64,000 bases of DNA. It comes from Spirochaetia bacterium (lineage in GTDB: Bacteria > Spirochaetota > Spirochaetia > WTKD01 > G963693115). This document shows, piece after piece, positions 12,343 through 20,278 of this stretch. Each line of letters opens with the position of its first letter. The stretch's first letter is position 1. Under the pieces are notes generated by a model, which ran no database searches, was not told the DNA's origin, and saw only the letters and a program-made list of their open reading frames with translations. The translations under genes were made by a program, and so were the position numbers. The DNA is taken from positions 152,695 to 216,694 of the forward strand of contig CBDDCA010000004.1 of assembly GCA_965226055.1 (NCBI GenBank), read 5' to 3'.

Positions 12343-13672
12343 AAAGATAGATTTTGTTATGCTTTTGTCTGTTCTCACTTTGCTTATTGTAGGGGTGTTG
12401 GCAATTTATTCTAGTTCAGTTGATATACATAATGAAATTAAATCAAACGAGTATATTCGTCAAATTATTTTTATTGTACTTGGTATTGGTTTATTTTTGA
12501 GTATACATCTTATTTCATTAAAAGATATTCAAAAATATGTTGTTGTATATTATATAGTGTGTATTCTGTTGCTTATCATAACATTATTTTTTGGACAGAT
12601 AAGAAATGGAGCGAAATCATGGATTGGTATTTGGAATTTTGGAATACAAATTTCTGAATTTTCAAAAATTGCGGTAGTGTTAATGCTGGCTAAGATTGCT
12701 GAAGATGGAGGAGAATATAATTTTAGTGCAAGGTTTATCATACGTGCTTTGTGTCTTGTTGCTATTCCTTTTGCGCTTATATTATTACAGCCCGATATGG
12801 GTACTGCTTTAGTATACATTCCTATACTGCTTTCTATTTTTTTTGTGTCTGGGGTACAGTGGCATCGTATCATGTTTGTAGTGTTTGTTGGGATTGTAAG
12901 TATTATTACATTGATTTTGTTATTTTTCTTTTATTCTTCTGATATTGCTTCTATCAGTCCTGAAGATATTATTCGTCAATCAACTTCTATGATAACTATT
13001 TATATCATAATACTGCTTTCTTTAGTTCTTTTAAGTTTGGTAGGTATCAATCTCTCCCATTTTAAGAAATTTTTTCATGTTTCATTATATATATCGTCAG
13101 TGTTGAGTGTAGGGACTGTTTTAGCAGTAGCTGCTTTGCGTATACTGAAACCGTATCAGTTACAACGATTGCTTATTTTTATAAACCCTAACTCTGATCC
13201 TCTTAATACTGGATGGCATATTTTACAATCGAAAAATGCTATTGGAACTGGAGGATTGTGGGGACTAGGGTTTCTTGAAGGTAATCAGTCAAAATTACAA
13301 TATCTTCCAATGGCACAAACTGACTTTATTTTTTCGGTTATAGGAGAAGAGTTTGGATTTATAGGAGCATCGTTTGTGTTGTTGTTGTATTTTGCTATTA
13401 TGTGGAGAATACTCATTATTGGATATAAATCTTCTAGTATTTTTGGGGCTATCTGCTGTGCTGGTATATTTGCTATTTTCTTTACTCATTTTACGGTAAA
13501 TGTTGGCATGACATTGGGGTTAATGCCAGTAACAGGCATTCCTCTGATGTTGCTTTCGTATGGAGGCTCTTCTTTATGGACAGCTCTTATGTGTATAGGA
13601 ATAGTCCATACTATTTTTTTTCAAGAAACGAAATATAAAGCTGGGGCTGTTGCGTTACTTGTAGTAAAGTAA
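12335..13672 (+). CDS. rodA: SEDS peptidoglycan glycosyltransferase RodA
   Basis: GAKSWI, QISEFSK, LQPDMGT, TDFIFS..GEEFG, PVTGIPL..LSYGGSS. Confidence 0.96.
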   Translation: MNKKIDFVMLLSVLTLLIVGVLAIYSSSVDIHNEIKSNEYIRQIIFIVLGIGLFLSIHLISLKDIQKYVVVYYIVCILLLIITLFFGQIRNGAKSWIGIWNFGIQISEFSKIAVVLMLAKIAEDGGEYNFSARFIIRALCLVAIPFALILLQPDMGTALVYIPILLSIFFVSGVQWHRIMFVVFVGIVSIITLILLFFFYSSDIASISPEDIIRQSTSMITIYIIILLSLVLLSLVGINLSHFKKFFHVSLYISSVLSVGTVLAVAALRILKPYQLQRLLIFINPNSDPLNTGWHILQSKNAIGTGGLWGLGFLEGNQSKLQYLPMAQTDFIFSVIGEEFGFIGASFVLLLYFAIMWRILIIGYKSSSIFGAICCAGIFAIFFTHFTVNVGMTLGLMPVTGIPLMLLSYGGSSLWTALMCIGIVHTIFFQETKYKAGAVALLVVK

Positions 13673-13858
13673 TAGTAACATATCCAATATGTAGGTCATA
13701 TTTAGGGGATATAATAGTGTATTGAAAAAATATGTACAAAAATTACATTGAACATTAAAGATTAAAAAAATATGTAAATGTACATGAAAATAAGATATTT
13801 TTTATATAGTATGCTATCATTATTAGATAAAATACTATATACTTAAAGCAGAGGCTTA

Positions 13859-14317
13859 GTGAGAATGCAAAGAGGACTTTATGATGTCATTGATTTTTCA
13901 AAAAGGGTATTGGTAGATATTCCTTTTGGTATCACAAATCTAAAATTACAAAAATTAATGTATTTTATCTATGGGACCTATTATTGCGAAACAGATAAAG
14001 AATTATTTAATGAAAGACCACAAGCATGGGATTATGGTCCTGTATTTCCTAAAGTCTTTTATAAATACAGAAGCAGTGCTGGTGGAGATATAGATAATAC
14101 TCACATTTTTTCTAAATTAGAAATTGATGATAAAAAAGTAAAAAATATAAAAGAGGCAGTACTAAACCAATTAGCCGATAAATCTGATTCTAAGTTAATT
14201 GGTATGACACATATAGATAATGCTGCTTGGAGTCGTGTCTATAAACCTGGGGTAAGAGGTATACTTTTAGATCTAAAGGATATTAAGAAGGATTTTGCCA
14301 AATATGTCAGAAAATGA
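13859..14317 (+). CDS. Panacea-domain (SocA/GepA/DUF4065) antitoxin
   Basis: ITNLKLQKLMYF, LFNERPQAWDYGPVFPKVF, L..MTH...AW signature. Confidence 0.92.
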   Translation: MRMQRGLYDVIDFSKRVLVDIPFGITNLKLQKLMYFIYGTYYCETDKELFNERPQAWDYGPVFPKVFYKYRSSAGGDIDNTHIFSKLEIDDKKVKNIKEAVLNQLADKSDSKLIGMTHIDNAAWSRVYKPGVRGILLDLKDIKKDFAKYVRK

Positions 14318-14663
14318 ATCAGAAGATATATTAGAATATGATTACAGTGATCCACAAGTTCAAGAAAAAAATAAAGACGATAATAGAGAACAAGAGTTAG
14401 AGAAATTAAGAGAAAAAGTGAATCAACTAGAAGCTGAAAGACAAAAATTAGCTGCATTAAGTTCAACATATATAAGTATTATTGTGATTGGAAGTGCTTT
14501 ACTTTTTAATATCTATATATTTCATAATTTTAATTTCAATATAGTAGGATCTATTATTATAGGGTTAATTGAGGTGATAGCACTGCTTATAATAGCAAAA
14601 ATGTATAAGATAAGCGTCATCAATAATCTATGGGAAGAAATTACATCTCTTTTTAAGAAATGA
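14295..14663 (+). CDS. putative toxin partner of the Panacea antitoxin; acidic/coiled N-terminus plus 2 TM (start may be ATG 14304)
   Basis: Overlaps the Panacea stop; two hydrophobic segments YISIIVIGSALLFNIYIF and IVGSIIIGLIEVIALLIIA. Confidence 0.6.
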   Translation: MPNMSENESEDILEYDYSDPQVQEKNKDDNREQELEKLREKVNQLEAERQKLAALSSTYISIIVIGSALLFNIYIFHNFNFNIVGSIIIGLIEVIALLIIAKMYKISVINNLWEEITSLFKK

Positions 14664-14743
14664 TAAAAAGTAACAATACTTATATTAGCATTCTCCTTTA
14701 TCTCATATAATCTTTGAATTTACAAAAAAACTCTCATTTTCAC

Positions 14744-14773
14744 TTGATTTTTTTTTTTTTTTTATTTTAAAAT
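14744..14773 (+). promoter_or_regulatory. sigma70-like promoter TTGATT-N18-TAAAAT with a T16 homopolymer through the spacer
   Basis: TTGATT 14744-49, T run 14748-14763, TAAAAT 14768-73; SD AGAGGA before ATG 14815. Confidence 0.7.
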
Positions 14774-14814
14774 AAAGTAAATTATAAAAACAAATATAAA
14801 GAGGAACAAGTAAT

Positions 14815-16512
14815 ATGAGAAAAATATATCTCCATTTTTTACAAGAAATGGAAAAAGAATTACAAACTATTGATTATGATACCCAAAAGGTACGTGATTT
14901 GCAACAGTACATAGAATCAAAAGAGCTACTGCTTCCAGTGATAGGGCAGTTTAGCTCTGGGAAAAGTACGCTCCTCAACTCGTTTATAGGGAGAGATATA
15001 CTGCCAGTGGGCATTACGCCCGAGACAGCACTAGCATCAGAGCTGAGATATGCAAGTGATGAAAGAATAGAGGCTATCAAAAAAGATGGGGGCATCACAA
15101 CATTTTCAATAGACGAAATAGAAAAGATAAAGGAAAGAGCAAAAGATTTTTCGTATCTTACGTTTTTTATCAATAGTAATGTTGTTCGTGATATTGCTCC
15201 GTTAATCCTTGTTGATATGCCAGGCTTTAGTGCAGCCAATGAGTTTCATCAACAGGCTATTATGGAATATCTCAACAAAGGAGTGCATTATGTCTGTCTT
15301 ATCAGTGTTGAAGAAGGAACTATTCAAAAATCTATGGAAATACAGCTGAGGGATGTTAAGGAGTTTGAAAGAAAATTTTCAGTATTTTTAAGCAAATGTA
15401 ATCTCCGTTCTCCAGAAGAATCGAAGGAAATAGCCACTAAGATACAAGAACAGCTAGAAGATAATTTTGATGAACATATATCTGTTGTGCCAATAGATGA
15501 CAATGGAGGCGAAAGTCTTGGGACAGTCATGCAGGAGATACATATTTCTGATCTTGAGAAACAAGTATTTTTCTCAGGAGTTGAAGCGTTATACAGAGAT
15601 ATTTTAGGGAGCATCAATACAGAAATAGCATCTCTCACAAAAAGCAAAGAACAAAACGATGATGCCATTACTGCACTCAAAGAAAGTGTAGCAAAGATTG
15701 AACAAAAACGCGATCAGCTTATGAATGATGCTCGTAATACCTACACAGAGCAACATGCTCGTCAGATTATTGAAGCAGTAGGTTCTGATCTTTCAAGCAG
15801 TGTAGAGCAGTTTGTATCTATTGCAATGTCAGGAAACTCTGATGAGATGTCACGGCAAATATCAGAAGTAGCACGTTCATCCTTAATTTCAAAGATGAAA
15901 GAAGTTATGACTACTATAAGCAGTAGTATTATTGATACGTTTCAGCTTAATATACAGGATATTGAGACGAATGTATCAGGCTATACTCCTGATGCTTCAT
16001 TGCTTGAGAATATTGCAGATACAGTAAAAGGGAAGATGTCAGGTATACAACAGAGCATGACAGATATGGTAGCTGAACGCCAAAAAAAGAAAGGGGCAAG
16101 CGGAATATATATGGCTATTACTGGTATTTTAGCACTTTCTACTGGTGTTATTGCACCAGTATTAGAAGCAATAATTGTATTTTTGCCAAGTCTATTGAGC
16201 GGGCTTTTTAAGAAATCGAGAGAAGAAAAACAAAGAGAACAAATTAGATCTACATTGCTCACACAGACATTTCCATCAATAAAAAGAGAAATAGCAACTA
16301 AAGTAGAATCGTTATTGGAAGAGCAAACAAAAACCTTAATACAAGGCATTGGTACTCAGTATCAGGAATTGTTGGAACAAAAAAGCAAAGAGATTGAAAA
16401 AGCAGAGGAAGAAAAAAATAAAAAAATACAGGATATTGAACAGATAATAGCTACAAAAAAAGAATGTGTGGCACATATTACCTCTCTTGCAAACGAGAAA
16501 TTATACGGATAA
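14815..16512 (+). CDS. bacterial dynamin-like GTPase, LeoA-like
   Basis: G1 GQFSSGKS, G2 LPVGITPET, G3 DMPG, G4 SKCN; hydrophobic paddle near residues 430-462; size similar to LeoA. Confidence 0.88.
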   Translation: MRKIYLHFLQEMEKELQTIDYDTQKVRDLQQYIESKELLLPVIGQFSSGKSTLLNSFIGRDILPVGITPETALASELRYASDERIEAIKKDGGITTFSIDEIEKIKERAKDFSYLTFFINSNVVRDIAPLILVDMPGFSAANEFHQQAIMEYLNKGVHYVCLISVEEGTIQKSMEIQLRDVKEFERKFSVFLSKCNLRSPEESKEIATKIQEQLEDNFDEHISVVPIDDNGGESLGTVMQEIHISDLEKQVFFSGVEALYRDILGSINTEIASLTKSKEQNDDAITALKESVAKIEQKRDQLMNDARNTYTEQHARQIIEAVGSDLSSSVEQFVSIAMSGNSDEMSRQISEVARSSLISKMKEVMTTISSSIIDTFQLNIQDIETNVSGYTPDASLLENIADTVKGKMSGIQQSMTDMVAERQKKKGASGIYMAITGILALSTGVIAPVLEAIIVFLPSLLSGLFKKSREEKQREQIRSTLLTQTFPSIKREIATKVESLLEEQTKTLIQGIGTQYQELLEQKSKEIEKAEEEKNKKIQDIEQIIATKKECVAHITSLANEKLYG

Positions 16513-18782: not shown

Positions 18783-20278
18783 TAAATGAAAATATATTGA
18801 TTGTATTAATTTCTACTATTGTCTTTATATGCATAGTAATGCTTATTATCCGCCTCATTCAGAACAATAAAAAAATAAAATCGTTAGAGGATACAATAAC
18901 TCGTATACATAAGAAATTACAAACACTAGAGGAAAAAATAGTTCACCAAAGCAATAATATAACCAGAATAGAAAAAGAGAAGACAGTATTAGAGGAGCAA
19001 TATATGAAAAAGAAGAGAGATTTTGATGCTCTTGAACAAGAATCACGAGAGGCACGTGGAGCAAAGGATAAACTAGACTTAATAAGTGCTATTCTTGGAG
19101 CAAAACTCCCTAGCAATGCTGGATTGGTTGAATTTAAGCGATTATTACGTGAAGATTTTCTCGATTTTGCTAATGAAGAATCTTCTGTAGCAGAAGAAGC
19201 TACATGTATATTAAAGTTACAGAATATTGAAAAAGAGCTAGAGCTTATGAGCAATTATTCTGCTATTATAGGAAAAACACGTATAGCAGTTGCAGGGGGC
19301 TTTAGCAGTGGAAAATCTAGTTTCTTAAATGGGATTATCCCTGATACAAACATTAAGCTCCCTGTGGGAGTAAATCCTGTAACGGCAATTCCTACCTATA
19401 TCATATCTCAACAATCAGAGAGTGCTGATACTACTATTACTGCTTTTTCCACAAAGGGAGGAAATACGCCTATCTCTAGTGAAATATATAATAAATTATC
19501 CCATGATTTTATCAACTCACTAGGGTTTAATCTAAAAGATATTCTTGCCTTTATGGCAATAACCATTTCAGAAAAAATATATGAACATATTTGCTTTATT
19601 GATACCCCTGGATATAATCCTGGATCTTCGGGAGAAAGTACTCATTCTGATACAAAAACAGCATCTGAGTTTGTGGAGCAATCTGATATAGTGTTGTGGT
19701 GTATTGATATTGAAAGAGGTACTGTGCCAAAAACAGATCTTGAATTTATAAGGGAACATTTACAAGAAAAGACACTCTATGTAGTGATGAGCAAGGCTGA
19801 TATAAAATCCTCTGAGGAAATTGAGGATATACTGGATGAGGTGGAAGAAATGCTCCATGATGAAGATATTGCCATAGAGGGAATCTCAGCCTGTAGTTTT
19901 CTTAATGGCATAGAGGAGAAAACATCAAGAAAAATGAATATAGACGATTTTCTCACATTGTATAACAAAAACAGTACAAAGCATGAAAAAGAAATACTCA
20001 TTGCTCGCGTAGAGGAGGTTTGTGATATATATGATAAGGCTATCAACGAAAGTATCAAATTTAGCAAAGAGCATCAAAAAGAATTACACTCTATTGGGCT
20101 TGATGTATTAGAGTTAGGAGTAGATGATGAGGATAAAAGTGTTAAAACAAGTAGAACGAGTAAAACAGGAAGAAGCAAGAAAACAAGTAGATCAGGAAAA
20201 ATAAGTAAGGAATCATCATCAATATTCGGATGGCTTGGACAGTTTGTTGGTGATGAATCAGATAATGATGAGGAGTAA
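18779..20278 (+). CDS. third dynamin-like GTPase with N-terminal TM and coiled coil (C-terminus possibly split)
   Basis: N-terminal TM, G1 GGFSSGKS, LPVGVNPVTAIPTY, DTPGYNP, SKAD; ATGA overlap with the previous gene. Confidence 0.85.
   Translation: MINENILIVLISTIVFICIVMLIIRLIQNNKKIKSLEDTITRIHKKLQTLEEKIVHQSNNITRIEKEKTVLEEQYMKKKRDFDALEQESREARGAKDKLDLISAILGAKLPSNAGLVEFKRLLREDFLDFANEESSVAEEATCILKLQNIEKELELMSNYSAIIGKTRIAVAGGFSSGKSSFLNGIIPDTNIKLPVGVNPVTAIPTYIISQQSESADTTITAFSTKGGNTPISSEIYNKLSHDFINSLGFNLKDILAFMAITISEKIYEHICFIDTPGYNPGSSGESTHSDTKTASEFVEQSDIVLWCIDIERGTVPKTDLEFIREHLQEKTLYVVMSKADIKSSEEIEDILDEVEEMLHDEDIAIEGISACSFLNGIEEKTSRKMNIDDFLTLYNKNSTKHEKEILIARVEEVCDIYDKAINESIKFSKEHQKELHSIGLDVLELGVDDEDKSVKTSRTSKTGRSKKTSRSGKISKESSSIFGWLGQFVGDESDNDEE
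20144..20215 (+). repeat. four 18-bp tandem units encoding KTSRTS/KTGRSK/KTSRSG/KISKES
   Basis: AAAACA/AAAATA starts at 20144, 20162, 20180 and 20198. Confidence 0.7.

Follow-up and report, generated by a model that had tools for sequence, protein, structure and literature searches.

Switches based on promoter homopolymers are familiar from surface antigens and restriction-modification genes. In the vlp genes of Mycoplasma hyorhinis a poly-A tract lies between the -35 element and the -10 (Citti and Wise 1995, as cited in the review PMC10502178). For Helicobacter pylori 26695, 25 promoter loci with T or A tracts have been described, nine of them with the tract between -35 and -10 (PMC4081817), and in the spirochaete Treponema pallidum poly-G tracts occur in the promoters of tpr genes, tp0126 and tprL (PMC7864442). 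Tandem dynamin genes are common across bacteria (PMC4159319). One such pair, LeoA and LeoBC, makes up the anti-phage system Eleos (10.1101/2022.12.12.520048).

We analyzed a 64-kb window (C4:152695-216694) of the spirochaete genome G000. A run of 16 T's in this window is located upstream of three genes for dynamin-like GTPases and is probably a promoter-spacer slippage switch, as judged from its sequence context and from a comparison with related genomes.

The dynamin operon and its surroundings

The three dynamin genes are adjacent and co-oriented, and all of their products contain a Dynamin_N domain (Table 1), the PF00350 cut-off of 27 bits being exceeded with scores of 66.2, 83.6 and 59.2. 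They constitute a tandem bacterial dynamin-like protein operon. The intergenic distances are 41 nt between dynamins 1 and 2 and -4 nt between dynamins 2 and 3; since the latter two genes overlap by 4 nt, we treat all three as a single operon. No promoter within the operon rose above the level of shuffled sequences, and no + strand terminator was found after position 20278. The operon is present in only two of 61 related genomes, namely in G000 and in G001, a closed 2.36-Mb MAG of the same genus that was the sole relative in the scan of the genome collection. The three genes are intact in both.

Table 1. Features of the dynamin locus (positions within the 64-kb window).
Feature	Position	Strand	Basis and remarks
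Panacea/SocA-type antitoxin domain protein, 152 aa	13859..14317	+	PF13274, E 4.2e-13
Small protein, 122 aa, coiled-coil head and hydrophobic tail (two hydrophobic segments)	14295..14663	+	ORF; sub-threshold family matches only
Candidate -35 hexamer TTGATT	14744..14749	+	Read from sequence; identical in the sister genome G001
Poly-T tract T16, slippage-prone spacer filler	14748..14763	+	T18 at the orthologous site in G001
Candidate -10 hexamer TAAAAT	14768..14773	+	TACAAT in the sister genome G001
Ribosome-binding site AAGAGGA (GAGG-type)	14799..14805	+	Read from sequence; conserved in G001
Dynamin-like GTPase 1, 565 aa	14815..16512	+	Dynamin_N, E 4.6e-18; 5owv_C, E 1.3e-11
Dynamin-like GTPase 2, 742 aa	16554..18782	+	Dynamin_N, E 2.2e-23; 5owv_A, E 2.3e-14
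Dynamin-like GTPase 3, 499 aa	18779..20278	+	Dynamin_N, E 6.5e-16; weak PADLOC LeoA match

Among solved structures, dynamins 1 and 2 matched two chains of PDB entry 5OWV, which we take to be the DLP1/DLP2 pair of Campylobacter jejuni; our table of matches lists the entry as 'GTP-binding protein' only. Look-ups in the ESM Atlas led to generic 'dynamin family protein' clusters only. Proteins of the dynamin family generally act in the remodelling or repair of membranes.

A preliminary description of this DNA had called the operon Eleos-like, a label that the profile searches do not bear out. The PADLOC model for LeoBC matched dynamin 1 with 40.9 bits over profile positions 303-583 of 601 (47%) and the model for LeoA matched dynamin 3 with 29.4 bits over positions 101-277 of 559, whereas dynamin 2 had no PADLOC match. 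The NCBIfam LeoA/HP0731 family matched dynamin 1 only, at 15.6 bits against a cut-off of 325, and membership of the LeoA family was rejected on the LeoA scores of both collections. No LeoA structure was found among the solved relatives of dynamins 1-3 at E 0.01 or better. Because the LeoA and LeoBC matches are weak and partial, 5OWV is nearest and Eleos is a pair, we file the proteins as bacterial dynamin-like GTPases and not as Eleos.

The dynamin genes are preceded by a gene for a Panacea/SocA-type antitoxin domain protein, which scored 70.8 bits with the NCBIfam model SocA_antitoxin (cut-off 190). A 122-aa ORF overlaps this gene by 23 nt and ends 151 nt before dynamin 1. Its product may be the partner toxin of the antitoxin, and in the stretch 13859-14663 we see a candidate toxin-antitoxin pair of the PanA type, whose toxin would be a small membrane protein. 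Most of the 122-aa ORF (14337-14587) is missing from a diverged strain in the public run X5. With the exception of this pair the neighbourhood consists of housekeeping genes: the locus is preceded by dnaG, rpoD, mreB, mreC, the PBP2 gene and rodA and followed by fliS and genes of the shikimate pathway.

Between G000 and G001 the dN/dS ratios of the dynamins are 0.27, 0.51 and 0.51, compared to 0.11 for rodA, 0.06 for the antitoxin gene and 0.14 for the small ORF. Since the dynamins evolve faster than their neighbours and adjoin a toxin-antitoxin-like pair, we keep open a role in defence or envelope stress. Anti-phage defence is one possibility.

The T16 tract and its candidate promoter

Upstream of dynamin 1 the sequence reads cacTTGA, followed by 16 T's (14748-14763) and by ATTTTAAAATAAAG. 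The hexamers TTGATT and TAAAAT are separated by 18 nt (14750-14767), most of which are contributed by the tract, and 51 nt lie between the tract and the start codon of dynamin 1 (ATG at 14815). On the + strand of the 151-nt intergenic region this is the only sigma-70-like site. A second reading of the sequence reproduced exactly the positions and counts that had been reported for the tract and both hexamers, together with their 18-nt spacing; the accompanying arithmetic, according to which one T fewer gives a 17-nt spacer, is also right. The tract had furthermore been described as the longest homopolymer in the window, and it is indeed the sole run of at least 10 nt there (C4:167442-167457 in contig coordinates).

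The window encodes an RpoD with regions 2, 3 and 4. A sigma-70 model is applicable to G000, since perfect TTGACA-17-TATAAT promoters are present at other genes of this genome. TTGATT and TAAAAT match the promoter hexamers at nine of 12 positions, the -10 element being imperfect. Between 13600 and 15100 we counted seven promoter-like sites of this quality, which is not above chance (10.4 +/- 3.3 in shuffled sequences). Since shuffles of such AT-rich DNA yield as many of these sites, the hexamer pair taken alone is not beyond chance.

Such a match would also fit a tract that is hypermutable but of no regulatory use, a by-product of slippage in AT-rich intergenic DNA, with the operon being read through from upstream or started elsewhere. 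We consider this unlikely, though it has to be taken seriously. A promoter-like site is present at 13722-13749, upstream of the antitoxin gene. Because no terminator lies between the upstream pair and the operon (14663 to 14815), read-through from the pair is possible, and a switch at the tract could be leaky or irrelevant.

The preliminary description had also considered that the antitoxin/small-protein pair upstream might end in an intrinsic terminator, with the tract serving only as its U-tail. The T-run does follow the stop codon at 14663 by 85 nt on the same strand, but it is not preceded by a G+C-rich stem. The region 13600-15100 contains no terminator-like site, and the minimum free energy of the stretch 14655-14775 (-8.4 kcal/mol) corresponds to z = -0.02, with 88 of 200 shuffled sequences folding equally well. 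With no hairpin ahead of the tract and a fold like that of shuffled DNA, the terminator was rejected; we regard it as highly improbable.

Long homopolymers in G000 and in its sister genome

G000 comprises 2.25 Mb with 35% G+C and contains about 60 long homopolymers in total. Its A/T runs of 6, 7, 8, 9 and 10 nt number 5262, 2290, 765, 98 and 4, respectively. Runs of 11-12 nt do not occur at all, and 29 runs have lengths of 13-30 nt. The G/C runs likewise show a second mode, with 31 runs of 11-20 nt. Because the run lengths are bimodal, the long homopolymers represent a distinct class and not the tail of a random distribution. By these genome-wide counts the T16 tract is far beyond chance. The steep decrease from length 9 to length 10 and the gap at 11-12 nt indicate that long A/T runs are otherwise purged, which argues against a tract without any use.

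The placement of the long A/T runs argues in the same direction: all but one of the 29, thus 28, precede a gene and are poly-T on its sense strand. This number includes 25 tracts assigned by scripted distances, which are located 40-128 nt upstream of the called start codon, and three assigned by reading the flanking sequence; at two of these (C3:41621 and C6:948309) the crude gene caller had chosen a wrong start, and the third (C6:35) is at a contig edge. A lipobox is present in the products of the genes behind about 26 of the 29 tracts. These lipoproteins belong to families of approximately 1550-1700 aa, 2550 aa and 2100-2200 aa, and include a 590-aa DUF285 protein. Near-identical paralogous promoters in G000 range from T14 to T27.

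Three cases depart from this pattern: the dynamin operon, a tract that precedes a gene for an EF-G paralogue by 128 nt, and a T30 tract at C6:742767. The EF-G paralogue (702 aa, all EF-G domains) has its T15 tract (C6:554563-554577) in a divergent intergenic region, where the tract is also 100 nt away from a 301-aa lipoprotein gene on the opposite strand; related copies in G001 have T13 and T14. T30 is the longest tract (C6:742767-742796; T26 at G001:C1:2241070-2241095) and lacks a gene on its sense strand over a distance of 1.6 kb. In the poly-A orientation it is followed after 59 nt by a gene for 219 aa.

Outside the window, poly-C tracts are found in three type I restriction-modification specificity genes (hsdS; Methylase_S, E 1e-30 to 9e-45). 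They measure 14, 15 and 20 nt and are located some 30 nt inside the reading frame (C3:96327-96340, C4:27722-27736 and C6:662400-662419). For another hsdS-like ORF, the fourth, the tract measures 18 nt and is found 105 nt upstream (C1:13372-13389). These are probably phase-variable restriction specificities. With poly-C tracts in the 5' coding region of three hsdS genes, homopolymer switching in G000 would already reach defence genes.

Long poly-T tracts are nearly confined to the genus: we counted 1, 0, 0, 5 and 0 in five further genomes from the same family or order, whereas G001 has 30 A/T runs of at least 13 nt (29 in G000). In G001 all poly-T tracts are on the + strand up to 1.12 Mb and on the - strand from 1.23 to 2.24 Mb, with one more on the + strand at 2.26 Mb. 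As the strand switches between the chromosome halves, the tract-bearing genes follow the two replication arms.

The tracts are found in two promoter layouts. In the first, which is typical of the large families, the core promoter follows after the end of the tract, for example as Tn-ATCTATA-TTGACA-17-TATAAT in the 2550-aa family. About 22 of the 29 tracts in G000 are found upstream of the -35 and not in the spacer, and at most poly-T loci a distance of 7-36 nt separates the end of the tract from a downstream -35 or extended -10 element. The dynamin tract could act in a similar manner, upstream of or overlapping the -35 element of a downstream promoter with TATAAA (14783-14788) as its -10, where its length would alter the DNA shape and the phasing of upstream contacts and not the -35/-10 spacing. 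The sabA promoter of H. pylori works as such a rheostat (PMC4081817). TATAAA, however, would have to pair with the -35 sequence TTTTAT (two of six matches), has no TG extension and does not end in T. It becomes TATAGA in G001, and the site failed the criteria of the promoter scan. For the dynamin operon a rheostat of this type appears distinctly improbable.

In the second layout the tract is itself the spacer, TTG(A/C)nT-Tn-N2-5-TATAAT, and is found before genes for DUF285 and other lipoproteins. Examples from G000, with spacers counted by hand from the sequence as in all promoters of this layout, are TTGCGG-T13-ATTG-TATAAT (C3:41621, spacer 17), TTGCGG-T15-GTTG-TATAAT (C3:51427, spacer 19) and TTGC-T19-GG-TATAAT (C5:621165, spacer 19). 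A paralogue at C5:619209 has an interrupted tract, TTGCA-T8-A-T5-ATG-TATAAT, and a spacer of 16. The seven promoters of this layout in G001 have spacers of 16, 17, 17, 17, 17, 18 and 18 nt; two of them begin with TTGATT, as does the dynamin promoter. The dynamin tract falls into this layout, with spacers of 18 nt in G000 and 20 nt in G001. By a criterion chosen after the data were seen, 0.93% of random intergenic positions are bracketed in a comparable way (a gap of 16 nt with TTG at a distance of 1-3 nt in front and TAnnnT at 2-4 nt behind). That the bracketed layout recurs at lipoprotein promoters with a consensus TATAAT argues against a tract of no use.

The genes behind C5:619209 and C5:621165 are tandem DUF285 lipoprotein paralogues, one with T8-A-T5 and a spacer of 16 and the other with a pure T19 and a spacer of 19. 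Since the tract at C5:619209 is interrupted, it should be stabilized, and the length of this promoter would be locked.

The orthologous dynamin site in G001 reads TTGA-T18-CTTTTACAATAAAG. The tract is thus two T's longer and the spacer measures 20 nt. The -35 hexamer is the same in both genomes, and the -10 hexamer of G001 retains A as its second and T as its sixth base. A comparison of tract lengths in related genomes had been suggested in the preliminary description; it gives T16 versus T18 at a site where both hexamers are kept. The retained position and hexamers are a further argument against a tract without use, and the 20-nt spacer next to intact dynamin genes is an argument in its favor. 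In the intergenic region of G001, 22 nt are inserted at a distance of 23 nt upstream of the tract (window position 14725; L001 2889-2910). The contig from run X5 has a loose end at 14699 and seems to contain the insertion as well.

Synonymous divergence (dS) between the two genomes is only about 0.07-0.23. Ten orthologous pairs of pure poly-T tracts were matched by hand via long unique upstream flanks, and nine of them are unequal in length. The lengths in G000 and G001 are 16 and 18 at the dynamin locus, 30 and 26 at the longest tract, and 17/19, 20/15, 17/15, 13/15, 16/15, 26/17, 20/14 and 14/14 at the others. Three more G001 tracts align to an interrupted or short run in G000. As a control, seven of 265 runs of 5-8 nt were altered in length in aligned loci; these counts derive from gapped BLAST alignments, which misplaced gaps in long tracts (T15 versus T20 was called unchanged) and were used for 5-8 nt only. 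When exact 14-nt flanks were required, all of the 64 short runs had kept their length, and none of the long tracts qualified. In this genus long poly-T tracts gain or lose length far faster than short runs do, the sample being composed of paralogues and of two close species that are not independent. Loss of mismatch repair was rejected as the cause of this instability, as both genomes encode MutS_I and MutL_C.

Long homopolymers are prone to errors whatever the sequencing platform, and the tract or its length might be an artefact of sequencing or assembly. The only public contig that spans the locus, from run X1, shows 0 differences (positions 14737-14786 were excluded from the comparison) and possibly derives from the source data of the assembly. 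As the length of T16 rests on one assembly and on this contig, it could be off by one. The independent, closed genome G001, however, has a tract at the same site, and 29 and 30 such tracts occur in the two genomes at conserved positions. Given two independent assemblies, an artefact is very hard to credit.

Contigs from runs X2 and X3 (depth 2-8) stop at the tract, with 27 letters extending past 14736 and 39 or 43 letters preceding 14787. By arithmetic from these letter counts, the ends fit contigs that terminate after the T-run; they are equally compatible with length heterogeneity, with a failure of homopolymer sequencing and with low depth. Run X5, which represents a diverged strain, is uninformative on the tract, since its contig extends 97 letters beyond 14699. 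Metagenome scans gave 0 hits with a 30-nt coding anchor and, with the dynamin 1 protein, 526 pattern matches of which 0 were confirmed.

Proposed switch and comparison with known systems

Based on the anatomy of the locus and on the comparison of both genomes, we lean towards the following reading: the slippage-prone T16 tract fills the spacer of a sigma-70-type promoter of the three-dynamin operon, and its length sets the level of transcription. TTGATT-18-TAAAAT would be the operative promoter and drive all three genes. Slippage in the tract during replication would change the spacer length and thereby transcription, so that changes in tract length may alter expression of the operon. A tract of about T15 would correspond to the optimum spacer of 17 nt, T16 in G000 to a near-optimal promoter, and T18 in G001, with its 20-nt spacer, to a promoter that is weak or off. 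The dynamin tract would then belong to a set of about 30 poly-T tracts at promoters throughout the genus, the others of which almost all precede genes for surface lipoproteins. Since T16 fills a likely promoter and the genome holds about 30 such runs, expression of the dynamin operon probably drifts up and down by replication slippage. The variation may be used adaptively.

The preliminary description had proposed a spacer switch for an Eleos-like operon. Its first part is supported by the only sigma-70-like site of the region, by hexamers kept in G001, by length differences in nine of ten tract pairs, by the recurrence of the layout and by the failure of the terminator alternative; the term Eleos-like is given up. 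Against the switch stands the combination of a 20-nt spacer and intact dynamin genes in G001, according to which the spacing is perhaps unconstrained and the site perhaps not a promoter.

A wider reading places an operon that is only distantly related to Eleos under a stochastic switch, so that the gut population would hold cells with and cells without a costly membrane-remodelling or anti-phage machinery, while three hsdS genes and dozens of lipoproteins switch as well. We regard this as doubtful. If it were true, the operon would be the first dynamin operon known as a contingency locus, and homopolymer bet-hedging would extend from the cell surface to intracellular defence. If the switch itself is real, it suggests that the dynamin GTPases are costly or conditionally useful, as defence and envelope-stress systems are, and it would offer a natural ON/OFF series for bacterial dynamin function in an uncultured gut spirochaete. 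The picture of the genus would also be widened, with a set of about 60 long homopolymers that reaches past lipoproteins to hsdS genes and a dynamin operon.

The preliminary description knew of no such switch for Eleos, and our searches of the literature on Eleos or dynamins and phase variation or homopolymers likewise gave no description of a phase-variable dynamin operon. Papers containing both 'dynamin-like' and 'phase-variable' were, in the portions available, unrelated to phase variation of dynamins. A literature link of the C. jejuni DLP pair or of dynamin-like genes to phase variation was not found.

DLP1 and DLP2 of C. jejuni are the best solved relatives of dynamins 1 and 2, and they match the gene order as a tandem pair. 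The similarity is confined to the GTPase region, however, and the spirochaete operon adds a third dynamin. With Eleos and the LeoABC proteins of ETEC the operon shares tandem dynamin-like GTPases in one operon and the weak matches of dynamin 1 to LeoBC and of dynamin 3 to LeoA. In contrast to Eleos, which is described as a two-gene system, it encodes three full-length Dynamin_N proteins with low, partial matches, and its middle gene matches neither component.

On the side of the switch, the vlp system of M. hyorhinis is similar in that indels in a long A/T homopolymer of the promoter switch transcription and in that there are many such tracts per genome, mostly before surface lipoproteins, as far as the review covers them. 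Lipoproteins of the mycoplasma-type DUF285 family are even among the tract-equipped genes of the spirochaete G000. The two differ in that the spirochaete target is an operon of cytoplasmic or membrane GTPases, mismatch repair genes are present, and the case is known from sequence alone. In H. pylori, T or A tracts of at least 9 nt at promoters vary among strains and grade the output, with outer-surface genes over-represented and other genes in the minority; most of these tracts have 11-16 nt, compared to 13-30 nt for the G000 tracts (PMC4081817). At sabA, unlike at the dynamin operon, the tract is described next to the -35 element and not in the spacer (PMC4081817). T. pallidum, also a spirochaete, has promoter homopolymers whose length sets transcription and varies within isolates, but these are reported as poly-G of 7-12 nt before genes for outer-membrane proteins, as opposed to T16 before a dynamin operon (PMC7864442). 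What is particular to the dynamin tract is that the gene behind it does not encode a surface protein. The type of switch is thus already known, whereas a dynamin operon behind one would be new and is plausible on the basis of the anatomy of the locus and the comparison between the two genomes.
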